Below are positions 13,066 through 55,765 of a stretch of DNA of 64,000 nucleotides, in pieces. This stretch comes from Deltaproteobacteria bacterium (GTDB lineage: Bacteria > Myxococcota_A > Polyangia > Polyangiales > JAFGIB01): the NCBI GenBank assembly GCA_016929805.1, contig JAFGIB010000456.1, positions 7,573-71,572 on the forward strand, given 5' to 3'. The position numbers were made by a program, and so were the translations under genes. The notes beneath the pieces are model-generated. The model did no database searches. It was not told the DNA's origin and saw only the letters and a program-made list of their open reading frames with translations. The number at the start of each line of letters is the position of its first letter. Positions within the stretch are counted from its first letter, which is position 1.

Positions 13066-13136
13066 ACTTTTTAAGAACTTATGCATTAAGCCGTTTTTCT
13101 CGCGTTTTCGCTCGACGTTTTTTTCAAGGTTAAGGT
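13066..13136 (+). repeat. family-1 foldback repeat, right-arm fragment
   Basis: ...ccgtttttctcgcgttttcgctcgacgtttttttcaaggttaaggt aligns to the right arm of the full copies. Confidence 0.7.
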
Positions 13137-13190
13137 TTTATTTGAGCTTTTTCCTTGAGCCGCCGACACTAGCATAGTAGCCACTGGTGG

Positions 13191-14522
13191 ATGACGCGGT
13201 TTTGCGGAACCGCGTGGCATATCCCAAGTGGGAAAATCGGAGGCGTTACTGTGGGTTTTCTCGATGAAAAGCCGATCGAGCGTTTAGCTATCCGAGTAAA
13301 AAGGGTACAAGATAAGCTTCTGGCGGAAAACGCTCCCGAGCGGTTCGAAAAAGGATATCGCGCTTTTATTTCGGCGATCGATCAGGAAACCCCGCAGAGA
13401 CGCTGGCCCGCGGCGATTCGTTGGGCCGTCAGCCTAAGCGTTGCGGCGACCGCGGTCTTTGCTCTTTGGTGGATAAGAACGGATCGCGCGACGACTTTGT
13501 CTTTCACGGTAGGTCATGAGCATACCCCGGGTACTGTTGGAGGTTGGATAACCGCCCCGCCCGATAAAAGCGTGCCGGTGGATTTCTCGGACGGTACGCG
13601 ATTGGCCCTCGAGCCCAACACGCGCGCTCGCATCGGGTTATATCAGTTAACAGCGGCGCGAATCGTTTTGGAGGCTGGTAGCGCGAGGGTTTCGGTGGTC
13701 CATCGTGAACGCGTTCAATGGAGAGTTGACGCTGGACCCTTTTCGGTTCGCGTGACAGGGACGCGTTTCAAGGTATCTTGGAATCCGGAACTGCAACTTT
13801 TTGAAGTGACTTTACGCGAGGGCGCGATAATTGCCGAGGGTCCGGTATTGAATCAGGGCCAGACAGTCGGTCGAGGGCAAACGCTTAGGGTATCGTTACC
13901 TAGGGCGATGGCTCTATTAGCGAGCACCAATGCGCTTCCGTCGTATCGCGACTGGGTCGCGAGCATGCGGTCCGATGCGAACAAAGACCGAGATAATGAA
14001 AGCAAATTTACGAGTGAAGCTCAAACCGAATCGAGGCGAAAAAGAGCGAATGGTAGCGACGTTCGATGGATGGAATTAGCGGAACAAGGTCACTATGAGG
14101 CGGCGCTAGGCGCGGCTGAAGAAAGAGGATTCCATCGGCTCTGTCGTAGCCTCGGCGTGGCGTCTTTGGTCCGTCTGGCGGAAGTGGCGAGGTTTGCGGG
14201 GCGCGTCGACCGAACCGAGGAAGCGCTGCTCGTACTTCGCAAACGTTTTCCGAAACATCGGGAATCGGCTATAGCGGCTTACACCCTGGGTCTCGCCGCG
14301 TTTGATCAAAAACGGGATTATCACGAAGCTGAGAAATGGTTTGAAGTTTACTTGCGTCAACAGCCTTCCGGACCGCTCGCGCGAGAGGCTCTCGGGCGTC
14401 TTATGGAAGCGCAATATCGACTCGGCCGGAAGCCAAATGCCAAACACACGGCGCGTCGATACCTCGATCAATATAGCGACGGCCCTCACGCTGATATCGC
14501 CGCGCGTCTGATTGACGAATAA
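13191..14522 (+). CDS. FecR-domain anti-sigma-like protein with one TM segment and a C-terminal TPR-like domain
   Basis: 443-aa ORF, divergent from the ECF sigma gene. The TM segment is AAIRWAVSLSVAATAVFALWWI. The FecR-like beta region is DFSDGTRLALEPNTRARI...FSVRVTGTRFKVSW. The C-terminus is helical-repeat (LGLAAFDQKRDYHEAEKWFEVYL). Confidence 0.8.
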   Translation: MTRFCGTAWHIPSGKIGGVTVGFLDEKPIERLAIRVKRVQDKLLAENAPERFEKGYRAFISAIDQETPQRRWPAAIRWAVSLSVAATAVFALWWIRTDRATTLSFTVGHEHTPGTVGGWITAPPDKSVPVDFSDGTRLALEPNTRARIGLYQLTAARIVLEAGSARVSVVHRERVQWRVDAGPFSVRVTGTRFKVSWNPELQLFEVTLREGAIIAEGPVLNQGQTVGRGQTLRVSLPRAMALLASTNALPSYRDWVASMRSDANKDRDNESKFTSEAQTESRRKRANGSDVRWMELAEQGHYEAALGAAEERGFHRLCRSLGVASLVRLAEVARFAGRVDRTEEALLVLRKRFPKHRESAIAAYTLGLAAFDQKRDYHEAEKWFEVYLRQQPSGPLAREALGRLMEAQYRLGRKPNAKHTARRYLDQYSDGPHADIAARLIDE

Positions 14523-14539
14523 CTACGAGTGGGCAGATT

Positions 14540-15379
14540 ATGCGTATTCGTAAAGGCTTTTTAGCCGCTTTTGCATGGACTTTACTGATCGTATCAGTAG
14601 GGAATGGCTGCGAGCCGGTAGGCGAGCCGATCGCGAGTCCGGATTTATTTAACTCCGGTAGAATCTTGGAGCCGGACGCGGGATATATACGCCTCGATTG
14701 CGAGCAGAGCGCCGAATTACCGGAGACGCTCGCGATATATTGTTTTGAGGACAACGACCAACCGAACGACATCGTCGTCGACAGCACGGGTCAACACGAT
14801 GGAAAGATCATCGGGACGAAAACGCGCGTCGTCCGCGGCCCGACCTGTTGCGGTATGGCTCGGTTTTTCAGCGAATCGAACAGCGCGTCCTATATTGAAA
14901 TCCCGGATTCGCACGATTGGGACTTAGACAAAGGGTCGATCAGTTTCTGGGTACGAATTAATGCCTGTTTTATCGCCGGTCAGAGCCAAGGGTTGATCTC
15001 GCGAGCATCGGCTGATCGCGACGAAGACGGACATTTGGGGCTGCTGCTGCTTAGCGAATGCAATTGGGCGGCCTTTGCAGCCGTAGACGGAGAAGCGATA
15101 GAGGTCCGAGCTGACAGATCCCTCACGCCGGGCAAATGGTCTCATATCAATATCAACTTCGGACCTCCTGGTCTTGAGCTGTACTTGGACGGCAGACTGG
15201 TAGCGGAAGATACCTTTCGCTCGGGAATGGAAGGCAGCCGCAATCCATGGGTAATCGGAGCTGACACGCGAGAAGCGAAACCGGGGACCGCTTCTCCGCC
15301 CGTACATTTTCTCACGGGGGCCGCGATCGACCTACTGCGAATAAGCTCAGCGCGGAACAAGTTGGTTTTTCTGGAGTAA
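14540..15379 (+). CDS. LamG/concanavalin-A-like lectin-fold lipoprotein
   Basis: 279-aa ORF with lipobox VSVGNGC. LamG-type motifs are YIEIPDSHDWDLDKGSISFWVR and KWSHININFGPPGLELYLDGRLV. Confidence 0.7.
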   Translation: MRIRKGFLAAFAWTLLIVSVGNGCEPVGEPIASPDLFNSGRILEPDAGYIRLDCEQSAELPETLAIYCFEDNDQPNDIVVDSTGQHDGKIIGTKTRVVRGPTCCGMARFFSESNSASYIEIPDSHDWDLDKGSISFWVRINACFIAGQSQGLISRASADRDEDGHLGLLLLSECNWAAFAAVDGEAIEVRADRSLTPGKWSHININFGPPGLELYLDGRLVAEDTFRSGMEGSRNPWVIGADTREAKPGTASPPVHFLTGAAIDLLRISSARNKLVFLE

Positions 15380-15503
15380 TGAGCCGCTTGCGAAAGTTGA
15401 GCCATTTTAGTCTCTCGTCGACACGTAACCTATAAAAGCGCAAACGAACGCATAATCAGAACCTAATCAGAACCGATAGGAGCACGGTTCGTTGGAGGAG
15501 AAA

Positions 15504-16877
15504 ATGCAAACTCTTTTATACAGGATCGTACGCTATACCGCCTTAGCGGCGCTCTTTATCATTCCCTCGCAATCGGATGGTCAGTCATTCGAGTGCGACG
15601 ACCGATTCGGCGAATGCGGCACGCCGGAAATGAGCGGCGGCGGCGGGAACGGAGGCGGGGGCGCTATCCTCATCGCCAACACGGATCTCGGCGATACCTA
15701 CCAGTTTGCCGATGATTTCGACAACGACGGCCGCGAGGATCCCTACGATAATTGCCCGCAAGTACGCAACGCGGACCAGCTCGATTCCGATGGCGACGAA
15801 ATCGGGGACGCGTGCGACAACTGCCCCGATACCGCCAATCAGATGCAAGAGGACATCGACGGTGACGGTGATGGAGACGCCTGCGACGACGACATGGACG
15901 GCGATGGTGTCGCGAACGAAGCGGACAACTGCCCTGAAGCGCCCAATCCCGCTCCGGACGAGTCCGCGGAGCAAAGCGATACCGACGAAGATGGTATGGG
16001 CGACGCCTGCGACGAGGATATCGATGGCGACGGGCAAGACAACATCGATGACCCCTGTCCAATGATTGCCGGTCAAGCAGATGACCTCGATAACGACGCG
16101 TGCAGCCCCGACGCGGACGGCGACAACGTACCGGATATAAAGGACAAATGCCCTTATATTTACGATCCGGACCAAAGCGATGTCGACGGCGATGCCCGCG
16201 GAGACGCGTGCGACTCCGATATTGACGGGGATAATATCATCAACAGCATCGATAATTGTCCCGAGGTAGAGAATAGCGATCAGGCGAATGAAGACAGAGA
16301 TGAATATGGCGATGCCTGCGACGACGACGGCTATTGCTACGTCGTTTTCGGCGACTATAACAACTGTCTTGATCCGGAAGATTTCCTAACGGTCTACGTA
16401 CCGACGCTGCTAGTCAATGTAGACAAACTGATTCGACTTCCGTTTTTCGTTAATCGTAATAACCAACGGCTAACCTACGAATGGTCGGTCGTCGAAGCCC
16501 CTAACGGTTCGAGCGCAACAGTGGTCGCGGCTCGTGGGACGGTCGATTCGTCGATTCGATACGAATATCTTTATCCGAAAGACGAGGTCGCGAGCTTCAA
16601 ACCAGATCGCGTTGGTGAATATGAACTTCGAATCACGGTTACCGCTCCCGTCGACGCTTTGACTCAGGAGATGAATGTGTCGGATACATTTGTAGGCAAA
16701 CTCGTGGTTCAAGGTGAGCCTTCTGAAGGCAAACGCGTGGTCCAAGGCGATGAGCCTACCAGCGACACCGACGCCGGTTCCTGCAGCGTAACAAACGGAA
16801 TGCGACCGAGCGCGACGAATTGGTTGTTGGCGCTGGTAATCGGAGTCCTACTTTCATTGCGGCGGCGTTCATTCTGA
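15504..16877 (+). CDS. thrombospondin-type-3-repeat protein with a MYXO-CTERM-like sorting tail
   Basis: ORF 15492..16877. The ATG at 15504 follows ggaggag. Canonical TSP3 units are present ([50 protein letters not shown]...). The C-terminus is DAGSCSV...[18 protein letters not shown]: Cys, then a hydrophobic helix, then an Arg cluster. Confidence 0.8.
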
Positions 16878-17101
16878 CCTGACGGTTTATTTTTGCGTTG
16901 TAAAAACGTCGAGCGGAAACGCGAAAAAAGCTATAAAATAAGGGCGCGCGCAATCTATTTTGGCCCCGAGATGAGATGCTAAAAGTGAAGTGATTTTTGC
17001 GCGAGCCCTAGGTGAGGTCCAAAAAAGCGAGCACGCGATTAGCTCGCGCGATTTATCGCGAGCGACGCGGTTTACGACGACGGGCTTTTCGCAACGGTAA
17101 G
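16877..17101 (-). repeat. family-1 foldback repeat, full copy (inverted orientation)
   Basis: It contains gcgttgtaaaaacgtcgagcggaaacgcgaaaaaagc at one end, gtgaggtccaaaaaagcgagcac internally, and gcgagcgacgcggtttacgacgacgggcttttcgcaacggtaag at the other end. This is the reverse complement of copy 45668..45859. Confidence 0.8.
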
Positions 17102-17186
17102 TTTTCGCTCGTATAAAAAAAAATCGGGACGCCGCCTTTTTATACAAAAAGCGCAAGACGATCCGTTACACTATCTCTGCGCGCCT

Positions 17187-17685: not shown

Positions 17686-17772
17686 TGCTCCAAAAAAAAG
17701 TGACCAGCGCTGTTGTACGCTTGATGCTTTTCGAGCGAGGCGTTTTACGCCACCGACTTTTTTTTAGTTTAA
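17686..17772 (-). repeat. family-1 foldback repeat, left-arm half copy (inverted)
   Basis: ctccaaaaaaaagtgaccagc...cttttcgagcgaggcgttttacgccaccgacttttttttagtttaac is the reverse complement of the left arm. Confidence 0.7.
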
Positions 17773-23366: not shown

Positions 23367-23369
23367 GCT

Positions 23370-24095: not shown

Positions 24096-24170
24096 ATCGA
24101 TATCCGTCTCATCGGAACCAGAGTCCGCTATAGGATGTGAATAGTGAACCTGATGTCGGTTTCCTTTTTT

Positions 24171-24284
24171 TAACTTTGCAAAAGCCGTCGAACGGAAACG
24201 CTAAAAAAGCGAGCGCCGGCTTGGCTATCGCTATTTTTCGCTAGCGAAGAGCTTTGCGCTTACGGAGTTATAGCAATGGTAAGG
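24171..24284 (-). repeat. family-1 foldback repeat, short copy (both termini, internal deletion)
   Basis: taactttgcaaaagccgtcgaacggaaacgctaaaaaagc ... cgctagcgaagagctttgcgcttacggagttatagcaatggtaagg. Confidence 0.7.
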
Positions 24285-24683
24285 CTTAATAGGCCCGCCA
24301 ACGCGTACTCCCGGGCGACGAAGCATATTCGTTGTATATCGTTTATTCGCTTTATTATTCAGAATCAAGAGTAATGTCTACGCTGAGCAACTAACATAGG
24401 AGCGATGATCCACGGCGCGACCTACGGGCCGATCTTCTCTACGCGCTAAAAGATCTGACCACATGTGGTTACGAGCTTACAAAATCGTCGACACACTCAT
24501 TATCTTGCTGGTTGTCCTGGCGCGTAAGAGATCCGGGCCCTATGTGGTATATACCGCGGAGTAGGAACAACGAGTTGTTTTAATAGGCGACCTGTTATTC
24601 GTTTTTAAGAAAGCGCATACACGGAAGAATCGCATCTATAGAAAGATGCTGGAAAGACCTGCTCTGCGCGCTATCTATATTAT

Positions 24684-24872
24684 CCTTAACCTTGCTAAAA
24701 CTCCGCCGGCGTAAAGCGCTTCGCCGCGAAAAACAGCGCGAACTAAGGGTGTGCTCACTTTTTTTGGACTTCACTTAGGGTGCACTGAGCTCGGGTCCAA
24801 AAAGAGTTCCGCGCGCCCGTATTTCATCGCTTTTATCGCGTTTCCGCTCGACGTTTTTGGCAACGTCAGGGT
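24684..24872 (+). repeat. family-1 foldback repeat, full copy
   Basis: It is near-identical over ~190 bp to 45668..45859. Shared stretches are ccttaac.ttg..aaaac.ccg.cggcgtaaagcgcttcgc...ctaagggtgtgctcactttttttggac.tcacttagggtgcac...cgtttccgctcgacgttttt.gcaacgt.a.ggt. Confidence 0.9.
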
Positions 24873-25067
24873 TATTTATCCCTACTCAAAGGACGAAAAA
24901 GATCTTTTTTGAATTGCTCGTATGCTCCGAATTCTAATAGACTTAAAAAATGCGTAAAATGACGTTATCCTATTTTGGGAAATAAAAACTCTTTTAGTCA
25001 CTTCTCAAGGGTTTGCATAATTTCCAAATTGTCCTTATCAGGTGGGCAGCTGATGGGTTAAGCTTTT

Positions 25068-25829
25068 ATGGCGAGGCAGTTTTACAAGAAACGAGATCGC
25101 GTATTATTAGTAGACGACGAGCTTACAGTCGCTTGGAGTATTGGGCGCTATTTGACCCGAGCGGGTTTTTCGATTTCCGCCTGTGGCTCTGTATCGGAAG
25201 CTCTCGAACTACTCAATTCAAAATCCTATGACGTGGTTATAACGGATATTCATATGCCCGGAACGAGCGGGCTGGTGCTGATCGATTGGATTCGTGATAA
25301 TCGACCCAATATGCGAGTCGTAACCATAACGGGGTTCGGCTCGCCCGCTCTGCACAAGATCGCGATGGAAAAAGGCTCAATACTCTATTTGGATAAGCCC
25401 GTCGATGTCGAATATCTTGTAAATGTGTTAAGAAATGACGGCAACTGCAGTACCTTTTGGGGAAGCATCGGAGGAATTGATATTTTCGATTACATACAAT
25501 TAATATTGATGACGAGACAAAAATTTATCGTAGAAATCGCCTCTAAAGAAGGCGTCTACGGAAAAGTATTTTTGAATCAGGGGGACGTGGAACACGCCGT
25601 CTGCGACGATATTACGGGAGAAGAGGCTTTTTATCGGATACTCGGTTTTAAAGGCGGACGTTTTACCACCATCCCCTGGTTGGAGCCCGTAGAGAAAACC
25701 ATCCATCTATCCGGCGATTTTCTGATGATGGAAGCGGCTCGAAAGAAAGACGAGCGGGATATTAACACGCCTGCCGATGCAGGCCAATCGCGAGACGCGG
25801 ACGCGTTCGAGGAGAAGAAATATGTCTAG
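25068..25829 (+). CDS. response regulator: receiver domain fused to a PATAN/DUF4388 domain
   Basis: 253-aa ORF. The receiver region is ILLVDDE...DVVITDIHMPGTSG...TITGFG...YLDKP. The C-terminal half (GSIGGIDIFDYIQLILMTRQKFIVEIAS..GKVFLNQGDVEHAVCDDITGEEAFYRILGFKGGRFT) is DUF4388-like. Confidence 0.85.
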   Translation: MARQFYKKRDRVLLVDDELTVAWSIGRYLTRAGFSISACGSVSEALELLNSKSYDVVITDIHMPGTSGLVLIDWIRDNRPNMRVVTITGFGSPALHKIAMEKGSILYLDKPVDVEYLVNVLRNDGNCSTFWGSIGGIDIFDYIQLILMTRQKFIVEIASKEGVYGKVFLNQGDVEHAVCDDITGEEAFYRILGFKGGRFTTIPWLEPVEKTIHLSGDFLMMEAARKKDERDINTPADAGQSRDADAFEEKKYV

Positions 25830-25907
25830 GCGGATGCGTAGCTCGAGCTTTAAAACCGTATTTACGACGTCGGCATACGCGTCAAGATAGAGAAGACGGG
25901 GAGGGTT

Positions 25908-26399
25908 ATGAAGGCCTTAACCATGGAAACATCGAATATAAACACACAAAAGCTTTCGGATGTGCTGAGCGACTTTATAGCCGAGACCGATTCAATCGTC
26001 GCTCTTCTGTTGAATAAGGACGGTACCGCCATCGCCTCCGCGGGCAGCGAAAACGCGATCGATACGACGGCGATGGCCGCCTTGATAGCCGGAATGTTTT
26101 CCGCGACGCGAGAGGTGGCGAAGATGGTTGGAGAGCATCAGTTTTCCATCCTTCTTCAGCAGGGAGAAAAAAGGCACATCCATATTTCGCTCGTTAATGA
26201 GCACGTTATGATGGCGGTGGTATTTGAGGGATTTCATCGAATCGGACGTATCAGATATGAGTCGAGAAAAGCATGTAAAACGATCGGGGCGGCTCTGGCG
26301 ATTACCGACCAGACGAATAACAACCAAAAAGTTATCTCAATTCCCGAGTTCAAGGAGGTCGCTCTGAACCTTATAGATAGTATATTTACCAACAAATAG
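25908..26399 (+). CDS. mglB: MglB-type Roadblock/LC7 protein (GAP partner of MglA)
   Basis: 163-aa ORF with RBS ggggagg. ALLLNKDGTAIASAGSENAIDTTAMAALIAGMFSATREVAKMVGE...HIHISLVNEHVMMAVVF...GRIRYESRKA parallels M. xanthus MglB. It lies immediately upstream of mglA, as in Myxococcus. Confidence 0.85.
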   Translation: MKALTMETSNINTQKLSDVLSDFIAETDSIVALLLNKDGTAIASAGSENAIDTTAMAALIAGMFSATREVAKMVGEHQFSILLQQGEKRHIHISLVNEHVMMAVVFEGFHRIGRIRYESRKACKTIGAALAITDQTNNNQKVISIPEFKEVALNLIDSIFTNK

Positions 26400-26408
26400 G
26401 GCCGAGAG

Positions 26409-26990
26409 ATGCCGTTTATCAACTACGAAAATAGAGAGATCTCGTTTAAAATCGTATATTACGGGCCGGGCATGAGCGGCAAGACGAGTAATATCATTTT
26501 CGTGCATAAAACCATAGCTGAAGACAAAAGAGGAGAGTTGATATCCCTTAAGACGTCAGAAGAGAGGACGTTGTTTTTCGATTTCTTTCCTCTAGAGCTC
26601 GGTCATATCGCCACGTTTTCGGTACGCTTTAATATGTATACGCTGCCCGGGCAAATATATTATGAGGCCAGCCGTCGTTTGATTTTGGACGGCGCCGACG
26701 GCGTGGTTTTTGTAGCTGACTCGCAGCGTTCGCGATACGAAAGAAACATTCTTCATTATCAACTGTTAGAAAAGAATCTAATGCTGTATAAAATAAATCC
26801 AAAGGCGTTTCCCATAGTTCTGCAGTACAATAAGAGGGACTGCGATACGCCGATCGAGATAGGTACGATCGAAAAGCAATTAGGGCTCGAAGACGTACCC
26901 GTTTTCGAGGCGGTTGCAACCAGGGGCGACGGGGTACTCGAGACGATACGAGAATTATCACGAAGGGTTATCAGCCAATTTGAGGTATGA
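26409..26990 (+). CDS. mglA: MglA-family Ras-like small GTPase
   Basis: 193-aa ORF. MPFINYENREISFKIVYYGPGMSGKTSN (P-loop) and RTLFFDFFPLELG are present. YTLPGQ shows the MglA-specific Thr in place of the Asp of DxxGQ. VVFVADSQ and LQYNKRD (NKxD) are also present. It is near-collinear with M. xanthus MglA as I recall it. Confidence 0.92.
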   Translation: MPFINYENREISFKIVYYGPGMSGKTSNIIFVHKTIAEDKRGELISLKTSEERTLFFDFFPLELGHIATFSVRFNMYTLPGQIYYEASRRLILDGADGVVFVADSQRSRYERNILHYQLLEKNLMLYKINPKAFPIVLQYNKRDCDTPIEIGTIEKQLGLEDVPVFEAVATRGDGVLETIRELSRRVISQFEV

Positions 26991-27043
26991 GAGTGAGGAT
27001 ATTTTTTACTTTGCTTAAATATATTTGACAGAGAGAGTATAAC

Positions 27044-27748
27044 ATGACGCTGCGCGGTTCATTGTCGGATCTAGGATCAGTACAACTCGTGCAATTCCCG
27101 TATAACGGAAGGAAAACGGGCGAGCTATTTATATCTAACCGCAACGCGGAAGCCCGTTTCTATTACCACGAGGGAAACCTCATTCACGCCGCGACTGGAA
27201 AGAAAACCGGAATAGATGTGTTGATCGATGTACTCGGCTGGACAGATGGAGAATTTGAATTTCGGACGGGCGTACGGCCTGAACGTCGGTCGATCGAACA
27301 AGATCTACACCAGGTTTTAATGATGGCTTTGGTAGCCAAAGACGAGAGAGAGCGGAGAAATAGCCAAATGCACGAAGAGAAATCACCGGAATTGATCAAA
27401 AAACGCATACAAAAGCTGCTAGACGAATTCGTAACATCCACGACGTACGTCCAATATAGCTATATTCAGGATTCCAACACGAATGTTATCGCTATATCCC
27501 GAGCGCTTCAATCACGCGATAACCTGAAAAGAATGCAGGATACGATATCTTCTTTTGTTCGATCGTACCCCGGTGAGCTCGGTCGAGCGTTTTTCGAGAG
27601 CGAAGAAGGCATGATTACAATTATGAGGCTAGTTGGGAAACGTTATCTTATTATGTTTACGAATCCGGAGGCAAGTCTTGGGATGATCACGGTGAAGGCG
27701 GGCAAGCTCGCCGCGTCTTTAGATGAAACACTGAGCCCAAAAGAGTGA
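27044..27748 (+). CDS. PATAN/DUF4388 domain fused to a Roadblock/LC7-like domain
   Basis: 234-aa ORF. The N-terminus is LRGSLSDLGSVQLVQFPYNGRKTGELFISN...GNLIHAATGKKTGIDVLIDVLGWTDGEFEF (DUF4388). The C-terminus is ...GRAFFESEEGMITIMRLVGKRYLIMFTNPEASLGMITVKAGKL (Roadblock-like). Confidence 0.75.
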   Translation: MTLRGSLSDLGSVQLVQFPYNGRKTGELFISNRNAEARFYYHEGNLIHAATGKKTGIDVLIDVLGWTDGEFEFRTGVRPERRSIEQDLHQVLMMALVAKDERERRNSQMHEEKSPELIKKRIQKLLDEFVTSTTYVQYSYIQDSNTNVIAISRALQSRDNLKRMQDTISSFVRSYPGELGRAFFESEEGMITIMRLVGKRYLIMFTNPEASLGMITVKAGKLAASLDETLSPKE

Positions 27749-27755
27749 ACGCGAG

Positions 27756-28934
27756 ATGGCCGACGAGAAAAAAAACGCGAATGACACGCCCCTTCCTCTA
27801 TTTTTGATATCGTGTATTGCGGAGGGGATTATTGACGAAAAGACGGCGTATCGTATCGAGACGGTTCGCGAAGAAAGCATCGCGTCGACTTTCGGTATGC
27901 TTGAGGCAATTCCTGACCCCAGCTTACGATTTAGTAGCTTTTATCCGTGTCGCGCCAACGCTATGGCGATTCAAATTGCAAAAAAAATTGCAGAAGAAAG
28001 AACCGCACCGGCAGAATACAATCCGATTTATTTCTACGGGGATACGGGCTTGGGGAAGACCCACCTTCTTTCGGCTATTGCTAACGAACTGGGCGATAGG
28101 GAAGTCTTGTTTCTAAACGCGGCGTATCTCGATAACGAATGTATCGAAGCGATTGCACCGCACGAAAATACATCATTCCGCAATTGGCTACGGTCATTTT
28201 ACGCGTTGGTGATAGACGATATTCAGCAGTGTCCGAGGCAGAAGGAGATCGAAAACGCCGTTGCGTTCAGCATAGATGAGATGGCTTTTCTTAATCGGCC
28301 TGTGGTTGTCGGCTCGGATAGGCCCTTGGAGGAGTTGAGCGAATTAAGCGACTTTTTGCTTTCGCGATTATCACGGGGAGTAAAAGCAAAGCTCGAGATA
28401 GGGGATGAGGCGGAACGATTTGCAATCGTAAAAGGTATGGTGGGAGAAAATACGGTACCCAATACCGTCCTCCACTATATCGCGGCTCAGATCGACGACA
28501 GCGTGCGTCGATTAAAATCAACGGTGACCCAATTGATAGCTATACATAACGAATTGGCCCGCCCGATAACGGTGAATCTCGCACAAACCGTTATCTATGG
28601 TGAGCCGGACAGACAACATAGGACTATAGCGAGTTTACATCCCGGTATGTCGAGCGAGATCGATCTCGATTCATCGAAACCATCTCTTGAGTCGGACGTC
28701 GCCGAGCTGTTTAAAAAGATGCTCGTAGACGCGGAAACAGAAGAAGAGCAGGCGTTAGCGCTTCAGATAGCGATCAGTGAGAGAGTGCGACAACTGAAAC
28801 GCGATAAAAACGCCGAGAAAGAGGCTTTAGAGAATTTAGAACACGCGCTGGAGATGCTTCGTGAGGGTAGCTTAGAAGAAGCGATTCATTACATAAATCG
28901 CGCGCGAGAAAAGAAAGACGAGCCCTTTATTTAG
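27756..28934 (+). CDS. DnaA-domain-III-like AAA+ ATPase with no DnaA domain IV (Hda-like architecture, acidic coiled-coil tail)
   Basis: 392-aa ORF. YNPIYFYGDTGLGKTHLLSAIANE (Walker A), ALVIDDIQQC (Walker B), NRPVVVGSDRPLEEL, LLSRLSRGVKAKLEIGDEAERFAIV and DSVRRLKSTVTQLIAIHNELARPITVNLA are collinear with DnaA domain III. No helix-turn-helix DnaA-box-binding C-terminus is present. Confidence 0.8.
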   Translation: MADEKKNANDTPLPLFLISCIAEGIIDEKTAYRIETVREESIASTFGMLEAIPDPSLRFSSFYPCRANAMAIQIAKKIAEERTAPAEYNPIYFYGDTGLGKTHLLSAIANELGDREVLFLNAAYLDNECIEAIAPHENTSFRNWLRSFYALVIDDIQQCPRQKEIENAVAFSIDEMAFLNRPVVVGSDRPLEELSELSDFLLSRLSRGVKAKLEIGDEAERFAIVKGMVGENTVPNTVLHYIAAQIDDSVRRLKSTVTQLIAIHNELARPITVNLAQTVIYGEPDRQHRTIASLHPGMSSEIDLDSSKPSLESDVAELFKKMLVDAETEEEQALALQIAISERVRQLKRDKNAEKEALENLEHALEMLREGSLEEAIHYINRAREKKDEPFI

Positions 28935-28977
28935 CATCGAAGATCGGGGATGAGGAGATAAAGAGAGGAGCACGATT

Positions 28978-29334
28978 ATGACACAACTGAGCGTTTTACT
29001 TGAAGAGCTCGTCGAAATAAGCGGAATAAGAACAGCGCTCGTGGTAGGACGTGATGGGCTGGTCGTGGATAGCGCCACAAAAAAGTATCGGGATGATGAT
29101 GATGCCGTCGGCGCGATAATATCTACGGGAATCTGCTCAATAGAGTCGACGGGAAAAGAACTGAACCTCGGTAAATCGACTCAAGGACTCCTAGAATATT
29201 CCGACGGCGTGGTGCTCATCAACGCGTTGGCCGAAGATTCCTTACTCGTGATTGTGGCTGATAAAAAAGTAAATCTCGGAAACATCCGGTATCAAGCTAG
29301 AAAGCGTATGACTTCGCTACAAAAAGCTATTTAG
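28978..29334 (+). CDS. stand-alone Roadblock/LC7 protein
   Basis: 118-aa ORF with a strong RBS (agaggag). The sequence LLEELVEISGIRTALVVGRDGLVVDSA...GAIISTGICSIESTGKELNLGKSTQGLLEYSDGVVLINALAEDSLLVIVADKKVNLGNIRY is Roadblock-type. Confidence 0.8.
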   Translation: MTQLSVLLEELVEISGIRTALVVGRDGLVVDSATKKYRDDDDAVGAIISTGICSIESTGKELNLGKSTQGLLEYSDGVVLINALAEDSLLVIVADKKVNLGNIRYQARKRMTSLQKAI

Positions 29335-29359
29335 GGCTCGCGTAATAACAACTCCACTT

Positions 29360-29944
29360 TTAGCCGATCGCAGGCAAAACCTCTGCAGTCGTTCTCATAA
29401 TGGCTTCTTTTAACCGATGTTCTAACGGCGTACGCGTGACGACGCCTAGAATAAAATGCTCTTCGTCGCTTTCAGCGACCTGGAAACCGTAAATATGTTG
29501 TTTGTCGTAATCGAGATTTACACAAAGAAGCCTATTTTCTTTGTCCGAAATACGGTTTAGCTGCTCAAGCGCATAACTCAGCTCGGCGCCCACGCCTTCA
29601 GAATGTTCATCGGGGAGAGCGCCACAATTCGATATAACAAACCCTTGAGAATCGACTACGAAAGTCGATTCCGCGTTGATCGCTTCGTGGCACCATCGCA
29701 CAAAGGAGTCAATGCTACTAAAACCGCTCTCCGGCCTTTTAGGAATCGCTTGAAGCTTATCTTCCTCCGTCACCTGCGGCTCACTCGGCGGCTTTTCTTG
29801 AGTCGGTCGAAAGATAAAAGGAGGATATACCGGAGTCGCATTTTGCGGCTCTAAGGTGCTTTTTACCTTGGTCTTTTTACAGAGTTTGTGACTCAGATTG
29901 CTAGCGAGGTGAATGTCAAACGAGCTCTCTTTGCGGCCTTTCAT
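29360..29944 (-). CDS. protein with a Pro-rich N-terminal linker and a Roadblock/LC7-like C-terminal domain
   Basis: 194-aa ORF overlapping the parA-like stop by 29 nt. The C-terminus is EAINAESTFVVDSQGFVISNCGALPDEHSEGVGAELSYALEQLNRI...LLCVNLDYDKQHIYGFQVA...FILGVVT. Confidence 0.6.
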   Translation of the reverse strand: MKGRKESSFDIHLASNLSHKLCKKTKVKSTLEPQNATPVYPPFIFRPTQEKPPSEPQVTEEDKLQAIPKRPESGFSSIDSFVRWCHEAINAESTFVVDSQGFVISNCGALPDEHSEGVGAELSYALEQLNRISDKENRLLCVNLDYDKQHIYGFQVAESDEEHFILGVVTRTPLEHRLKEAIMRTTAEVLPAIG

Positions 29945-32263: not shown

Positions 32264-32444
32264 AGAACTCTTCGCAAAATAAACGATACGAGACCGGGCG
32301 CGTCGGCGGGATGCGGTCGCGAGCGCGCCCGGAGCAAAACCGCGGCAATAGCAGCGCTATTTCGAAGATTTTTCCGAGGACGAAAGCCGCTAACGCACCC
32401 GCCCACGCGCTCGCAACAGGGACGTCTATTTTGCGGAGAGTCCT
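32264..32444 (+). repeat. family-2 foldback repeat
   Basis: 181 bp. The termini are agaactcttcgcaaaataaacg and cgtctattttgcggagagtcct (inverted). The conserved core is aaaccgcggcaatagcagcgctatttcgaaga. Confidence 0.75.
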
Positions 32445-32578
32445 TAGACGGTTGCGCTCCGAAATACTCGGTCGGGCCTCGTTAAACACGCTACAAGACC
32501 GGACGGAAAGGCAAATGCGCTATAACTCGAGAGAGACGGGTGCTTTGGGGCTACCCAATTTAGACGACATCGGACGTG

Positions 32579-37470: not shown

Positions 37471-37652
37471 AGGACTCGCGTCAAAATAAATGTTGCGTTC
37501 GGCGCCCGGATTTAGTTCAGATTTGCCTCGAACCGATTTTGCGAAACCGGAGCAATAGCATCGCTATTTCGAGGAATTCGCGGAATCGGTTGGAAGCGAA
37601 TACGGCCTGAAGATGGGATGCTAAATGCAACATTTATTTTGATCCGAGTCCT
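37471..37652 (+). repeat. family-2 foldback repeat
   Basis: 182 bp. The termini are aggactcgcgtcaaaataaatgttgc and gcaacatttattttgatccgagtcct (inverted). The core is aaaccggagcaatagcatcgctatttcgagga. Confidence 0.75.
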
Positions 37653-38141
37653 TAAATAAGAAAAGTAACTACAAGCTCGGACGGTGTAAAAAAAACTGTT
37701 TATCTTTTCTAGCTATCGTAGCAGTGGTAAAGAGATGTGGAATTGCCGCGAATACGACCTCGAGCGCATTTGAGCCCGTCTCGCGGACGAGACGCTGCTT
37801 CATCCAAGTCGGGTAATTCGAGAAACGCAAGCGAGGTTTTTGCGAAGGATCGCATCGCGTCGAAACCTCGTTAGACGATTTCTAAAGGGTCCTTGGATCG
37901 ACTTTAAGAAGCCAATCGAGAGATCTAAAATGGGGTATCTACACGGGATGGGAACGCGGGGCGGTAAGCGATCGGCTAGCGGCGAAGGCCGCCCGACTTC
38001 GACCGCATCTCACGCCCTATAGGCGTTTGGTAGCGCGGTCGCGATAAATACTGTAATGGTTAGATCAATTGAATACCTGTACAGTGCTTGCCGACATCGC
38101 GTACCTGTGGTATTGAGCCTTCATAAATCGGGTCTGAGCCT

Positions 38142-45551: not shown

Positions 45552-45617
45552 CTCCGCGCCCTGCTAGATCGCTCTCGGAGTGCAACAAGAAAAGCGAGAG
45601 GCGCTCGATTTGCACCG

Positions 45618-45667
45618 TTTTTCGCTGGCGAAAGCGGTTTACGCCGACGGAGTTTTTGCTAGGTTTA
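45618..45667 (-). repeat. family-1 left-arm fragment, head-to-head with the next copy
   Basis: tttttcgctggcgaaagcggtttacgccgacggagtttttgctaggttta is the reverse complement of the left arm and abuts the forward copy. Confidence 0.65.
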
Positions 45668-45859
45668 CCTTAACGTTGAAAAAAACCGTCGGCGTAAAGC
45701 GCTTCGCTCGCGAAAAATTGCGCGAGCCCTAAGGGTGTGCTCACTTTTTTTGGACCTCACTTAGGGTGCACGAAGCTGCGGCCCCAAAAAAAGTTCCGTG
45801 CACCCTTATTTCATCGCTTTTTTCGCGTTTCCGCTCGACGTTTTTTGCAACGTTAAGGT
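45668..45859 (+). repeat. family-1 foldback repeat, full copy (used as reference orientation)
   Basis: ~192 bp. The termini ccttaacgttgaaaaaaaccgtcggcgtaaagcgc and gcgtttccgctcgacgttttttgcaacgttaaggt are imperfect inverted repeats. The internal motif taagggtg..cac occurs twice directly and once inverted. Confidence 0.9.
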
Positions 45860-45934
45860 TTAGGTTACCGTTTGCGCAAACCGTGCGAACTGACAAAACA
45901 GCGTTGGCTAATGAGATAAGCGGAGATATAGTTC

Positions 45935-50502: not shown

Positions 50503-50506
50503 TTGA

Positions 50507-50572
50507 CATTGACGTTGCAAAAAATCCGTCGGCGTAGAGCGCTTCGCTCGCGAAAAACAGCGCGAGCCCTTA
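50507..50572 (+). repeat. family-1 foldback repeat, left-arm half copy filling a convergent intergenic gap
   Basis: cattgacgttgcaaaaaatccgtcggcgtagagcgcttcgctcgcgaaaaacagcgcgagccctta. It lies between the stop at 50502 (+) and the stop at 50570 (-). Confidence 0.8.
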
Positions 50573-52480
50573 GTAACCATTAAGAATCACGAAATCCGGC
50601 GGATGCGGCGCCGGTATTTTGATAAAGCCTATTGGACTGAATTTATGCGGCGCGCTTTTCACCGAGCATCGGGGCTGACAGACCAGGGTATGCAACCAGT
50701 TGTAACGCAGAACGATATCCTGTTTCGGATCGGTGCCGCGGACCTCTATGCGATTGGTCGATGCTCTGATCTCGCCCGCACCAGCCTGGAAAAGATTCGG
50801 CTTGATCTTCGTCCGATAAACGAAATGGGGACCGATGTTTTGATAAAAATCTAGAACTGCCAGCGCATGTATAAAGCGCCTATCAGGATAGTCTATTACA
50901 ACCCATTTGATGGCGAAGGTTTCGAAATACTCCTGCAGAATTTGGGGGTTTGTCAAATCGATATCGTCACGCGGTCTAAAGATGTTCGAATACGTGTGGG
51001 CGAAATTACGAAAGGGAAATCCACCGATGATTTCCGCGTCGGTTGTCCAAGTGAGACGCTCTCCAGGTACGCCGAACTGAACCAAAAAGCGACCGATCCC
51101 GTCATCTTCGCGTTTTACCCAGTCGGAAAGACCGTGGTCAAACGGATTGTCGAGCGAGTGACGATAGGAATAATGAATAAAATAGCCGGAAGAGGAGATA
51201 TCGACGGGAAATCCTTCCTCGGGAGTAGCGACTTTCGGTAGTTGTTCCGGGAAGAAATAGAGAATATCCGACGAGAGGTGTTGTATGCCGGGAATAAACA
51301 AAACAGCGACTGCGGCGTATAAGACCCGAGGCGGACGAAAGCGCGCGCGGTTATGCCAAGCGGCTTCGACCAGGGCGGCTGCCGGAATCAGGGTCATAAA
51401 AGCAGCGGCAAGAGCATTGCGATAGGGCTGAACTTGAGTGAGCACCTTGAGATAGGCGCCGAAATAAGCAATAGCCAATAGATAACCGATCGCGGTCGCG
51501 AACACGAGAAATCGTTTGTCACCCGAGCGCCTCCAGATGAACAACATCAAGACCGCCGCGCCCAGAAAGAGAAAGCGAAAACTCGTACGGTTTCCTATAG
51601 GTCCTGTAACCGATGTGTTCAGAACGAGTCCGAAGAAATCTCCGAATATGAAGGCTAAAGACGCCTTGCAGTAATATCCTGAATCGAGAATATATCGAAG
51701 AAAGTCTAAAGCGACGATCAGCCAATAAGAGTTAATAGCTAAAGTAACCAGGGGAATGGTCGCGATAGCCGCGTGCTCTTTCAGACTTAGCAGCCTGAAA
51801 TACCGGAAATAAAGCACAGCCATCGGTAATACCAGAACCACAAAGCTCCAGACGTGTACCAAATGTGAAACGCCTACCATAACAGCGGCGCAAGCAACTT
51901 GCCAAAAACGTCGGTCTTGTAGATAGCGGTAGAAGAAGGCGAGGGACAGTAGCGTTAGGGAGCACGCCATGGCGTAAGAGACCATGCCGACGAACCAGAG
52001 CCAGTGCGCGAAAGAGTCGAAGAACCACAACGCTGAACCCATTGCCATCGCGACCAGCGCAGACCACTTTCTCAGACCGAAAAGACGAGCCGAGAAAAAG
52101 ACCGCGGGCAATACCAAAAGGTGCGCGAGCAACAAGTACGTGTTATGCGCCGCTCCTTTAGAAAGGCCTAACTTCCATAGCGCCCAAGTCAAAAGCTCCC
52201 AGGCCTTATTGTTGGCGTCCTCATAAATTAACATGGGACAACCCGCGAGCAGTTTCGGGTCATACAGCCAGCTTTTTCCCCAACCTTCGAAGGCTTCAAT
52301 AAAGTGCCAATTCTGTCCGATGTGGCCGTCGAAGTCTCCGATGTTTATCGGTTCGTCGCTAAAACTGATGGCCGGGTAGGAGAAAAAAGTAACCAGTCCC
52401 AGATGCGTCGCAATAACCGCAACCAGCGCTATATAAAAGGCAATCCGAGTCAAAGTAGAAGGGGAATCAGTACCGGTCAC
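50570..52480 (-). CDS. polytopic membrane protein with a soluble C-terminal domain (possible GT-C-type glycosyltransferase, unproven)
   Basis: 636-aa ORF with about 12 hydrophobic segments in the first ~400 aa, then a ~230-aa hydrophilic domain. No catalytic motif was recognised by eye. Confidence 0.65.
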   Translation of the reverse strand: MTGTDSPSTLTRIAFYIALVAVIATHLGLVTFFSYPAISFSDEPINIGDFDGHIGQNWHFIEAFEGWGKSWLYDPKLLAGCPMLIYEDANNKAWELLTWALWKLGLSKGAAHNTYLLLAHLLVLPAVFFSARLFGLRKWSALVAMAMGSALWFFDSFAHWLWFVGMVSYAMACSLTLLSLAFFYRYLQDRRFWQVACAAVMVGVSHLVHVWSFVVLVLPMAVLYFRYFRLLSLKEHAAIATIPLVTLAINSYWLIVALDFLRYILDSGYYCKASLAFIFGDFFGLVLNTSVTGPIGNRTSFRFLFLGAAVLMLFIWRRSGDKRFLVFATAIGYLLAIAYFGAYLKVLTQVQPYRNALAAAFMTLIPAAALVEAAWHNRARFRPPRVLYAAVAVLFIPGIQHLSSDILYFFPEQLPKVATPEEGFPVDISSSGYFIHYSYRHSLDNPFDHGLSDWVKREDDGIGRFLVQFGVPGERLTWTTDAEIIGGFPFRNFAHTYSNIFRPRDDIDLTNPQILQEYFETFAIKWVVIDYPDRRFIHALAVLDFYQNIGPHFVYRTKIKPNLFQAGAGEIRASTNRIEVRGTDPKQDIVLRYNWLHTLVCQPRCSVKSAPHKFSPIGFIKIPAPHPPDFVILNGY

Positions 52481-52946
52481 TTGAAGATTCTAGCTCGTTT
52501 CTAAAAAGCGTATGCTTTCGTTACCGCGGTCCGGCTGTTGGAATCGGAAGAGTATAGATCTAGCATTAATTTGCAACACGATAGTATATACTGCAATCGC
52601 GCGTGGAATTCTAGCTTTCGAGTTGGCCCGAAAGGCTATAGTCGCCTCTTCTCTACATACAGTCGCGTAGATGATCGATCAAATCTCGCCGAGCGGTCGT
52701 CCGACGGCATGACTGTTGGACGCTCCGGAATAGGTAAACGCCGCGAGTTACCGAAATCCTTTAGAGTAAAAAAAGCTACAAGCGAGCTTTGCGCAATTTC
52801 TTTTCGTTGCGCCAACATCGATGTCGTCGGGCATAACGGTTCGGCGGACGGCCTCGATTTGGATCACGAACAATGCGGTTGCGGCTTGCAATCCTTTATG
52901 GTTCGCGTATGTGTAGACTCTACACCTTATCGCTGGAAACCACATC

Positions 52947-53876
52947 ATGCGCGCTAAATCTTGGAGCAGCAGCGAAATTGTCGATCAATCGGGTAAAGTT
53001 GCAGTTGTTACCGGGGCTAACAGCGGTCTGGGTTTTCGAGTCGCGCTCGTGCTCGCGGGCAAAGGCGCTCGCGTGGTGATGGCGTGTCGAAACCGGGACA
53101 ACGGCGAACGGGCGGCTATTAAGATCCGCAGAGAGTACCCCAAAGCGGTTGTGGAATATATGCCGCTTGACCTAGCGGACCTGAGCTCGGTACGAGCGTT
53201 CGGGCAGGCTTTCAACCGGCAATACGACAAGCTCGATATTTTGATTAACAACGCCGGTGTGATGGCCCTGCCGTATAGCCTAACCAAAGATGGATTCGAA
53301 ATGCAATTCGGGACCAACCACTTGGGTCATTTTGCTTTGACCGGGCTTCTTTTGGAGCGTTTGATCGCCGGCGGAGCCGCCCGCGTGGTCACGGTATCGA
53401 GCAATGCCCATAAAATGGGAAAGATGCGTTTTCATGATTTACATTGGAGCAAGGGGTACCGACGTTGGTCCGCTTATGGGATGAGCAAGCTGGCGAACCT
53501 GCTGTTTTGTTATGAATTCGCGAGGAAGATCAGCGAGAAGAATCTAAGCATACTCTCTGTCGCCGCTCATCCGGGTTTGGCGGAGACTAATCTGTTTATA
53601 TCCCCCCGCATGGAAAACCCAAGGCCTATCGCTTTTTTATACAAGCTAGCGAACAACTACTTGGCACAAGACGCGTCTATCGGGTCGTTACCTTTACTGT
53701 ACGCGGCAACGGCCCCCGGGGTCGGCAACGGAGAATATTTCGGTCCCGCGTATTTACGCGGATGGAGGGGGCCTCCTAAGAAAGCAAACTCCAACCGGCG
53801 CTCTCTTCGTTTGAAAGATGCGGCTCAATTATGGCAGGTATCTGAAGAACTAACTGGAGTAAAATGGGCGCTTTAG
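52947..53876 (+). CDS. short-chain dehydrogenase/reductase
   Basis: 309-aa ORF. Motifs are VAVVTGANSGLG, NNAG and YGMSKLAN (YxxxK). Confidence 0.9.
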   Translation: MRAKSWSSSEIVDQSGKVAVVTGANSGLGFRVALVLAGKGARVVMACRNRDNGERAAIKIRREYPKAVVEYMPLDLADLSSVRAFGQAFNRQYDKLDILINNAGVMALPYSLTKDGFEMQFGTNHLGHFALTGLLLERLIAGGAARVVTVSSNAHKMGKMRFHDLHWSKGYRRWSAYGMSKLANLLFCYEFARKISEKNLSILSVAAHPGLAETNLFISPRMENPRPIAFLYKLANNYLAQDASIGSLPLLYAATAPGVGNGEYFGPAYLRGWRGPPKKANSNRRSLRLKDAAQLWQVSEELTGVKWAL

Positions 53877-53880
53877 GGGA

Positions 53881-53911
53881 GCCGCTTCGACGTTTTTTGG
53901 GCCGTTAAGGC
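53881..53911 (+). repeat. family-1 right-terminus fragment
   Basis: gccgcttcgacgttttttgggccgttaaggc lies between the convergent stops at 53876 and 53940. Confidence 0.55.
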
Positions 53912-53939
53912 TTATGGTTTTCCGCTTGCCGCACTTTTA

Positions 53940-55229
53940 TTACGGCGTGCAATCGCCGTCGACGCATGTTTGGCCGTCCGCGCAATCCACGCATTCCTCT
54001 CCATCGGCTCCGCAGTAATCCGCGGTCGTTTCGACATGGCACAAGCCGTCATTATCGATACACCCCGCGCAGTCGGTGCAAAGGCCGTCGATGCAGGTCT
54101 CAGTGCTCTCGCATTTTACGCAGCCGTCGCCGTTGACCCCGCAGCGATCGTTGCTCGTAACGAGTTGGCACACGCCGCTATTATCGATACAGGTCGCGCA
54201 GTCGGTGCATACTCCTTCGATGCACGTCTCATTGTCCTCGCACACCAAGCAACCGTCGCCGTTGACGCCGCAGCGGCTTTTGCTCGTTCCGGGTTGGCAC
54301 ACGCCGCTATTATCGATACACCCCGCGCAGTCGGTGCAAAGGCCGCCGATGCAGGTCTCGTTGTTTTCGCAGTCCACGCAGGCTGCACCGTTTTTCCCAC
54401 AGCGATTGTTGCTCGTGCCGAGCTGGCACACGCCTCGTCCGTCGACGCATCCTTGGCAAAGTACGCACTCGCCGTCGATGCAGGACTCGTCAGACTCGCA
54501 TACGACGCAGCGCTCGCCGTTTTTGCCGCAGTTACTGCTTCTCGTCCCGGAATGACATTGATCGTTCGCGTCGACACATCCACAGACCTCGTCGTTAATA
54601 CACTCGCCGTCGATGCAGGACTCGTCAGGCTCGCATACGTCGCAAGTCTCGCCTCCGCTCCCGCAGTTGGCGGTCGTATTGCCTGCTACGCACCGTCCGA
54701 GACCGTCGATACATCCATTGCACACGCCGCTATCAGCGGTCCCTCCGACACATCGGCCGGCCACGCACAATTGGCCCTGTTCACAGGTTACGCAAGAAGC
54801 GCCGCCGATGCCGCAGTTTTGAGTGCTGGTTCCGGAACGGCAGTTGCCTGTCAGATCGATACACCCGGTACACGCGCCGCCGCTGTCGCGTAGATTCCCG
54901 CCTCCATCGACGTTACCCGAATCAAAAGGAGGTCCGCTTCCGTCGATCAACCCCGAATCCTCGCCCATGCCGCCGGTAGTCACGATCGTTGCATCGGTGT
55001 TTGTTCCAGCAGCGCTCGTTCCGGCAGTAGCTCCTGCGTTATTCTCTTTTTCGACCGATCCGCCCGAGCCGCCGCCGCCGGCCTCATTCTCGGAGGCGGC
55101 GCTGTCGTCGTTGGTTTTTTTGTCGCCGCCGGTGCCGCAACCGCTTGCCAGCGCTCCAAGCAATAGAATCATTTCAAGTAGGGAGCAAACCCCCGTGAAC
55201 CCCGTTTTGCTTGTCCTGCTCTTTTTCAT
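53940..55229 (-). CDS. cysteine-rich tandem-repeat lipoprotein (7 x ~43-aa eight-Cys modules)
   Basis: ORF 53940..55277. I prefer the ATG at 55229, which follows gggag and gives MKKSRTSK...LLLGALASGCG (lipobox). A Gly/Ser/Ala linker follows. Then come seven modules of pattern C-x2-C-x6-C-x8-C-x6-C-x2-C-x5-C-x4-C, e.g. CAGCIDNSGVCQPGTSKSRCGVNGDGCLVCEDNETCIEGVC. Confidence 0.8.
   Translation of the reverse strand: MKKSRTSKTGFTGVCSLLEMILLLGALASGCGTGGDKKTNDDSAASENEAGGGGSGGSVEKENNAGATAGTSAAGTNTDATIVTTGGMGEDSGLIDGSGPPFDSGNVDGGGNLRDSGGACTGCIDLTGNCRSGTSTQNCGIGGASCVTCEQGQLCVAGRCVGGTADSGVCNGCIDGLGRCVAGNTTANCGSGGETCDVCEPDESCIDGECINDEVCGCVDANDQCHSGTRSSNCGKNGERCVVCESDESCIDGECVLCQGCVDGRGVCQLGTSNNRCGKNGAACVDCENNETCIGGLCTDCAGCIDNSGVCQPGTSKSRCGVNGDGCLVCEDNETCIEGVCTDCATCIDNSGVCQLVTSNDRCGVNGDGCVKCESTETCIDGLCTDCAGCIDNDGLCHVETTADYCGADGEECVDCADGQTCVDGDCTP
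53946..54872 (-). repeat. in-frame tandem repeat (~120-130 bp period, 7 units) inside the Cys-rich lipoprotein gene
   Basis: Recurrent DNA strings such as gatacaccccgcgcagtcggtgcaaaggccg occur at ~54058 and ~54318. ttgacgccgcagcg and ttgacc.ccgcagcg also recur. The protein-level 8-Cys modules confirm the period. Confidence 0.8.
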
Positions 55230-55690
55230 TTCGTGATCTCCCACTCTATTTATAGAGTAAAAAAAATTAATAGGCATTCAAGCCGAAGTCGCTCTCGACG
55301 GCCGGTGCCCTGTTTGTCGCAATAATCTATCGGATGGAAGAGATCCAAAACGGATCATAAGTGGCCAACTATCGTATTTTTGGTCGAGAAACCTCTTTTT
55401 TTTTCCTGAAGAATCTGTAAAGCGTCGGTTCGGAGCCAAACGAGCAGAGCGAAATCTATGTGGTTTAGATCCAGCGCTCGAGAAACACCCGAATCCGTGC
55501 TCGAAAACGTCGCGCCTCCCGGTCGTTCATAAAGCCCGAGATGTATTAATTGGCCTTTTTCGGGGCTGGTACCTTATTAGAAGCGATTGACTCCGGACCG
55601 GAGGAAATTATCGTTTTGTTATGGATGACCAATAACGCCTTAATTTATTGCAATTCCGATACTTTCCATTTTCAGAGCTCTTCTGCGGTA

Positions 55691-55765
55691 AAAAAAGAGT
55701 TCCGCGCGCCCTTATTTCATTGCTTTTTTTGCGTTTTCGCTCGACCTCTATTGCAACGTTAAGGT
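55691..55765 (+). repeat. family-1 foldback repeat, right-arm half copy
   Basis: aaaaaagagttccgcgcgcccttatttcattgctttttttgcgttttcgctcgacctctattgcaacgttaaggt. Confidence 0.8.

Follow-up and report, generated by a model that had tools for sequence, protein, structure and literature searches.

A dense family of whole-length foldback repeats in a Myxococcota-like chromosome segment, very probably miniature inverted-repeat transposable elements that insert at A/T-rich four-base sites

The 64-kb stretch of DNA analysed here (the window) is a segment of bacterial chromosome in which a family of short, non-coding foldback repeats is scattered between the genes. Pfam scans show that the window carries a rimP-nusA-ylxR-infB-rbfA-truB operon, together with an MglA/MglB-like cluster and TSP3-repeat, TPR and FecR/ECF-sigma genes, and maximal open reading frames (ORFs) make up 84% of its length. 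Its TruB is identical to MBN1656665.1, encoded on a 73.8-kb contig of a metagenome-assembled genome (MAG) labelled 'Deltaproteobacteria bacterium'. The next-closest TruB relatives share only 60-65% identity, and the named ones lower in the list are Myxococcota.

Copies of the repeat were called by repeat finding, by blastn with three long copies, and with an nhmmer profile built from five full copies. These methods describe a single repeat family with 10 copies in the window, of which three are full (188-214 bp), one is internally deleted and six are arm fragments. All ten are intergenic; they occupy 8 of the 39 intergenic gaps and total 1.1 kb, which amounts to 1.7% of the window, or ~12% if only its intergenic DNA is counted. 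Neighbouring copies are separated by 0.4-20 kb and point in either direction, and housekeeping operons such as nusA-infB-truB lie around them. A repeat family with at least ten full or partial intergenic copies was the core of the original prediction for this DNA, and it is borne out by blastn, by nhmmer and by the count of a 22-mer core, which occurs 4 times against 0.00 expected in shuffles. The three full copies proposed there are also real, although one of them starts at 16889, the proposed start of 16877 being ~12 nt too far left. A further fragment proposed at 62427-62460 was not detected even at E<=50 and is unconfirmed. The copies, followed by one tentative piece, are:

24684-24871, plus strand: full copy, 188 bp; nhmmer E 1.2e-63; 91.5% identical to the consensus; predicted fold -74 kcal/mol, z -4.0.
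45668-45858, plus strand: full copy, 191 bp, the nearest to the consensus (94.7%); nhmmer E 2.5e-63; supported also by its flanks and by in-silico excision.
16889-17102, minus strand: full copy, a long variant of 214 bp with a 26-nt internal insert and degenerate tips; nhmmer E 2.2e-55.
24169-24284, minus strand: internally deleted short form, 116 bp; two nhmmer matches overlapping at 24203-24212; 78% identical to the consensus.
45586-45665, minus strand: older, decayed left-arm copy (inverted); nhmmer E 8e-12; 78.5% identical to the consensus.
17689-17762, minus strand: degenerate, weak left-arm fragment, model positions 14-86; nhmmer E 1.6e-6; 79% identical to the consensus.
13091-13138, plus strand: right-tip fragment, model positions 145-190; nhmmer E 2.8e-7; 22-mer core matched exactly.
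50505-50573, plus strand: left-arm fragment, model positions 3-61; nhmmer E 8.8e-15; 4-nt overlap with an ORF.
53882-53919, plus strand: probable right-tip fragment (weak); blastn 84% over 38 nt, E 6.5e-4; repeat finding 86%; nhmmer E 2.6.
55667-55765, plus strand: right half, model positions ~103-190; nhmmer E 5.5e-19; 89% identical to the consensus.
29332-29364, no strand assigned: tentative 33-nt piece; 85% complementary by repeat finding; blastn E 2.9e-4, borderline.

The long variant at 16889-17102 begins 12 nt past the stop codon of a TSP3-repeat gene and shares 75-78% identity with the other full copies. The right half at 55667-55765 resembles this variant at its left end, with the blastn match against the 16889 copy reaching 55667. 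The right-tip fragment at 13091-13138 sits in the gap between divergent ECF-sigma and FecR genes; inverted tips at either end of 12653-13137 hinted at a larger unit, which was dismissed for want of significance (E 2.9). Two fragments fill convergent gaps just as had been described: that at 50505-50573 fills the 67-bp gap 50503-50569, its end bases being the stop codon of the minus-strand gene, and that at 53882-53919 lies in the 63-bp gap 53877-53939. The tentative piece at 29332-29364 matches the 26-nt insert region of the 16889 variant and spans a 25-bp convergent gap between a Roadblock/LC7 gene and the gene at 29360-29944.

Chance similarity, or remnants of segmental duplications, would suit the weakest fragments only (53882, 29332 and the proposed 62427). 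For the main copies this explanation is refuted, with E-values down to 1e-63, the 22-mer core count given above, unrelated flanks, and copies in independent metagenomes, and we give it next to no chance. Full copies were found in two contigs of two different JGI metagenomes (L002 and L003), and another contig, probably of the window's own MAG, carries one more. The similarity is hence not confined to the window; confinement was the outcome that the original prediction had named as grounds for abandoning it.

The full unit is 188-191 bp long, non-coding, and imperfectly palindromic along its entire length. Its terminal inverted repeats span ~40 bp, starting CCTTAACGTTGC(A/T)AAAA..CGTCG; the conserved ends of the unit start CCTTAACG, and the outer cores read CCTTAAC...GTTAAGG. 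The first and last ~40 nt pair together in one helix (helix 1; 29 pairs, 87.5% paired), and each full copy matches its own reverse complement with E-values from 1e-10 to 1e-17. When folded, the 45668 copy forms one long hairpin, both as RNA (-83.4 kcal/mol, z -7.5) and as DNA (-55.6 kcal/mol, z -7.8). Judged by these self-matches and by folding, the terminal inverted repeats and the foldback of the whole unit are real, as proposed. Most copies have stop codons in most of their frames; one frame is free of stops in each of the L002 and 16889 copies. No protein-family match was found in the unit, and Rfam returned nothing at its gathering thresholds, the sole match being a chance similarity to a miRNA hairpin (E 0.22).

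Imperfect palindromes with outer cores of this type resemble the attC sites of a chromosomal integron, where the corresponding pattern is RYYYAAC...GTTRRRY, and the family might be read as attC-like sites or as the sites of some other site-specific recombinase system. However, the outer bases are off this consensus (C where R is needed, G where Y is needed), and the copies, spaced and oriented as described above within housekeeping operons, do not form a one-way cassette array. Typical attC sites are roughly 57-141 bp long, whereas the units here measure 188-214 bp. No integrase was found among the ~50 ORFs of the window (Pfam), and the variable 4-bp duplications described next do not fit either. 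We regard recombination sites of this kind as an extremely unlikely explanation.

On either side of each of the three best-preserved full copies stands an exact 4-bp duplication, different in sequence from copy to copy. The duplications are TTAT for the 24684 copy (24680-24683 and 24872-24875), TTTA for the 45668 copy (45664-45667 and 45859-45862), and TTAA for the metagenome copy on L003. Two random intergenic 4-mers of the window are identical with P = 0.0048, so three matches among five copies would arise by chance with a probability of ~1e-6. A copy read within the protein P0121, described below, has flanking residues that are compatible solely with TT(T/C)A on both sides. Looking for target-site duplications at the ends of full copies had been proposed as a check, and it came out positive: three are exact and one (TTYA) is inferred from protein. 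Similarity among the copies also breaks off sharply where the terminal repeats end, and the neighbouring genes are unrelated.

These duplications bear directly on a REPIN-like reading, in which two inverted REP units would be spread by a RAYT (an IS200/IS605-like Y1 transposase) and the half copies would be REP singlets. The family does share several traits with REP/BIME and REPIN-RAYT systems: its palindromic copies are dense and intergenic, their two inverted halves fold back on each other, and lone halves occur. REP/REPIN and IS200/IS605 mobility, however, does not involve staggered-cut target duplications, and here exact, variable ones flank the copies. The terminal repeats are ~40 bp long, unlike REP palindromes, which measure 20-40 nt and have a GTAG-type head, and none of the ~50 ORFs scanned in the window encodes a Y1 transposase (RAYT). 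Membership in these systems is not supported, and we consider this origin very unlikely.

One insertion can be reconstructed within the window itself. The 45668 copy is nested in the tip of the older inverted copy at 45586-45665, splitting its terminal CCTAAACC, and the rest of the older copy's tip resumes at ~45863-45868. Excising the 45668 copy together with one TTTA rejoins GCTAGGTT-TA-GGTT, a worn terminal GCAACGTTAAGGTT, and the alignment of the older copy then reaches model position 2.

Beyond the window, copies are also found in genes. On the metagenome contig L002, the left tip of a unit (1136-1337) abuts a pfaD gene truncated to profile positions 170-444 of 444. In a 90%-identical contig from another sample (L021), pfaD is uninterrupted and holds no copy. 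Homology between the two contigs stops exactly at the element boundary (L002 1135|1136 = L021 619, pfaD codon 151), and the breakpoint falls in an A/T-rich patch, GAACAAAAAA|TCAATGAG. At the other end of this copy, the right tip (…CGTTAAGG) stops 11 nt ahead of the ATG of the downstream gene. Its terminal AAGG could serve as a ribosome-binding site; no consistent occurrence of this arrangement is seen at the window copies.

A six-frame peptide query of the copies found one protein only, the BNR/sialidase-like P0121 (MBN1654002.1). Residues 15-78 of this protein are a translated full unit, in frame (64 residues, or 192 nt, equal to the 188-nt unit plus 4 nt). With the insert taken out, the sequence reads MKQRNMNQKTTTVFTLACAGAFAVWGFAAC|GS again, a signal peptide of the lipoprotein type as in homologues (P0258: MNQAMRNAISFTLVGAWSAC), and an insert at this position probably harms function. 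The 28-kb contig that encodes P0121 probably belongs to the same MAG as the window, with which it shares the organism name and, with TruB MBN1656665.1, the accession block. The earlier claim that all copies are intergenic is thus correct for the window (10/10) but does not extend to the family, given the copies in pfaD and in the P0121 signal peptide.

Such stable foldbacks could also be kept by the host, as REP/BIME-like hairpins that act as bidirectional terminators or mRNA stabilisers and are held in intergenic positions, perhaps as domesticated miniature inverted-repeat transposable elements (MITEs). The RNA folds are indeed highly stable (-83.4 and -74 kcal/mol, z -7.5 and -4.0), and three fragments lie exactly between convergent genes (50505, 53882 and 29332). 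Yet terminator-like sites are not above shuffles (20 vs 15.8 +/- 3.9, and 22 vs 17.3 +/- 4.2), and the hairpin of the whole element has no U-tract after it. A weak left-arm hairpin is followed by T7, but this sole hairpin-plus-T7 motif is internal and, in the 16889, 17689, 24169 and 45586 copies, antisense to the genes upstream. A promoter scan showed no enrichment. Fragments may retain either arm, which argues against a common functional module; copies disrupt the pfaD gene and a signal peptide; and relatives have no copy at the corresponding operon end.

Selection for the hairpin would also be expected to leave its mark on substitutions. There are a few compensatory pairs, such as GGACC/GGTCC to GAACC/GGTTC in the L002 copy, but covariation across copies does not exceed shuffles (score 0.095 vs 0.083 shuffled, with 65-97 of 500 shuffles as high), a test of low power with five sequences only. 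Pairs in the predicted foldback are 88.6% paired in the five full copies, compared with 87.7% in shuffles (65 of 500 as high, again with low power). Since substitutions disrupt pairing about as often as in shuffles, the foldback appears to be inherited from the founder sequence, and the five full copies give no evidence for its upkeep copy by copy. The terminator or REP/BIME-like half of the original prediction is not supported by these results, with no terminators above chance, an antisense motif, no structure-preserving covariation, and duplications present. We think a host-selected role quite unlikely, although the stable hairpin may have secondary effects on read-through transcripts.

The other half of that prediction, a non-autonomous mobile element, is well supported by the target-site duplications, the sharp boundaries, the nested insertion, the occupied and empty pfaD site, and the insertion in the signal peptide. 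It is highly likely that the family consists of MITEs, small non-coding transposons, that insert at A/T-rich four-base sites. The family appears to be undescribed so far, and the kind of element is an ordinary one.

We propose that both ends of the unit would be bound by a DDE-type transposase whose gene lies elsewhere in the genome or has since been lost. Integration would take place at A/T-rich tetranucleotides (TTAT, TTTA, TTAA and TT(T/C)A, and also beside TTGA), where the transposase would make 4-bp staggered cuts whose repair leaves the 4-bp duplication. The inserted copies would then decay; a deletion between two internal GCTTTTTT runs would produce the short form, and the loss of one arm would produce half copies, a step suggested by the instability of long palindromes. 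TTWW-type sites are ~2x as frequent in intergenic DNA, and copies would persist mainly there because such sites are commoner and because genic insertions would mostly be selected against. If copies affect transcripts at all, for instance through a -83 kcal/mol hairpin in read-through mRNA, this would be incidental and would not account for the existence of the family.

Several observations weigh against the MITE interpretation. Neither a cognate transposase nor a full-length insertion sequence (IS) with matching ends was found in the window, where the Pfam scan of its ~50 ORFs agrees with the original statement that no transposase gene is present. Seven of the ten window copies are fragments, and no recent burst or activity is evident, no two copies being closer than 93%. 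The L002 copy has no 4-bp duplication (it is flanked by TTGA and TATA), and two old copies have degenerate tips. Moreover, what follows the L002 copy on its right is not pfaD but another gene, which together with the missing duplication points to a secondary deletion or rearrangement, or to an assembly chimera formed via the repeat. The target consensus is drawn from a small sample of five or six copies with both ends, and P0121 was placed in the window's MAG from accession numbers only.

As for the source of the transposase, the parent element we have in mind would be bounded by CCTTAACGTTGC...GCAACGTTAAGG and carry a DDE transposase. The CC-starting ends and the 4-bp TTAA-like duplications seen here would fit an IS1380/piggyBac-type source, which we treat as a lead only: by the ISfinder tables, IS1380 elements have CC ends and 4-5-bp duplications, and IS5 and IS701 types also make 4-bp ones. 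Among prokaryotes, the relatives of piggyBac are the IS1380 transposases (PMC10140906). piggyBac itself inserts at TTAA, leaving a 4-bp duplication (PMC7351741). A bolder version of the MITE interpretation would combine IS1380/piggyBac-type mobilisation and a TTAA-like preference with one of the densest MITE families in bacteria (~1 copy per 6 kb, or several hundred to >1000 copies if the window is typical), some copies of which have gained host roles, as fragments punctuating convergent gene pairs or as tolerated in-frame copies like those of Rickettsia. Taken as a whole, we find this rather unlikely.

Among known systems, bacterial MITEs are non-autonomous elements mobilised in trans by the transposase of an IS (PMC9330008). 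Like them, the present units are small (<~500 bp) and non-coding, have terminal inverted repeats and target-site duplications (of 4 bp), lack a transposase of their own, and occur as dispersed, mostly intergenic copies with presence/absence polymorphism. The family has no sequence similarity in plasmid or phage collections. We found no described MITE family from Myxococcota in the literature.

The closest analogues in lifestyle appear to be the Correia elements (CREE/NEMIS) of Neisseria, which reach ~2% of a genome and mostly duplicate TA (PMC9330008). Both families fall in the same size class, include full and internally deleted forms, reach high density (1.7% here), have no assigned transposase, insert at A/T-rich sites, and form a hairpin that can be co-transcribed. 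They differ in sequence and host, in the duplication (TA there, 4-bp TTWW here), and in the extent of the palindrome, which covers only the 26-bp ends in Correia elements but the whole unit here. The ERIC/IRU repeats of enterobacteria share the whole-length imperfect palindrome, the intergenic location and copies with internal insertions or deletions. They are unrelated in sequence and lineage and only ~127 bp long, whereas the present family shows clear 4-bp duplications and genic insertions.

Finally, the copy in P0121, which lies in frame in a coding gene and is read as 64 extra residues, resembles the Rickettsia palindromic elements (RPEs), as do the stop-free frames of the L002 and 16889 copies. 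This resemblance may be chance; there is one case only, it lies in a signal peptide, and most frames of most copies contain stops. Nothing suggests that the family is adapted to being translated.

The family looks old, because any two full copies share only 75-93% identity; fragments match the consensus at 78-91%. The L003 copy is 93% identical to the 45668 copy, above any pair within the window. No copies were found in the contigs of the nearest TruB relatives (60-65% identity; L019 and L020) or of the pfaD relatives (L021-L025), nor in the loci taken from genomes with a TruB of <=47% identity. Distant blastn searches of plasmid and phage collections gave no match, and the viral contigs scanned contain none. 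A short-read contig from SRR13394437 with an identical truB ends at 45657, ~10 nt before the 45668 copy and inside the older tip, as expected if the assembler broke at the repeat.

Decay of the copies follows a recognisable pattern. The short form at 24169-24284 joins model positions 1-82 to 145-188, with 83-144 lost, via a 10-nt overlap with common GCTTTTTT, and would fit a deletion through GCTTTTTT microhomology. Model positions 82-86, the internal T-run, are where three left-arm fragments stop, and two right-arm pieces begin at 145. The half copies had been suggested to reflect decay, and this holds up: fragments are the most diverged copies, with breakpoints at internal T-runs. Loss of one arm would be consistent with the known instability of long palindromes.

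The window contains other repeats. A second, unrelated MITE-like family of ~180 bp has copies at 37473-37653 and ~32266-32446, both intergenic. Its termini, GGACTCGCGTCAAAATAAATGTTGC and GCAACATTTATTTTGATCCGAGTCC, are 29 nt long and 90% complementary, and both copies have the core GCRAAACCG..GCAATAGCA.CGCTATTTCGA. TTA stands on both sides of each copy, which suggests a 3-bp duplication. A 49-nt inverted match between 4588-4636 and 62292-62340 (76% complementary) is unrelated to the main family; one of its sites overlaps the 5' end of the ORF 4341-4667 on the minus strand, while the other lies between genes. Either chance or a third repeat may account for the match.

Among the genes of the window, the cluster at 25068-29334 encodes a response regulator with DUF4388, a Roadblock/LC7 protein, a small Ras/Arf-like GTPase, a DUF4388 protein, a DnaA-like AAA ATPase and a second Roadblock/LC7 protein. 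This makes up an MglA/MglB-type polarity module and is consistent with a Myxococcota-like host. Large secreted proteins with thrombospondin type 3 (TSP3; calcium-binding) repeats are encoded at 15492-16877 and 5387-7414, with internal direct repeats in their DNA. Six 129-bp tandem coding repeats (43 residues each, cysteine-rich) occur at 53950-54670 within the minus-strand ORF 53940-55277, whose 445-residue product has no Pfam match. No tRNAs were found in the window.

The family opens no new category of element, but with it a repeat family of a poorly sampled Myxococcota-like lineage now has its consensus, ends and target defined. For work with MAGs it has practical consequences: the repeat breaks short-read assemblies and may produce chimeric joins, as on L002, and it misleads gene callers, as seen at the start of P0121 and in the ORFs called within copies. 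The 4-bp TTAA-like target is a concrete lead toward the transposase. For the lineage itself, the family represents a MITE able to disrupt a polyketide synthase/polyunsaturated fatty acid (PKS/PUFA) gene and the signal peptide of a secreted protein.

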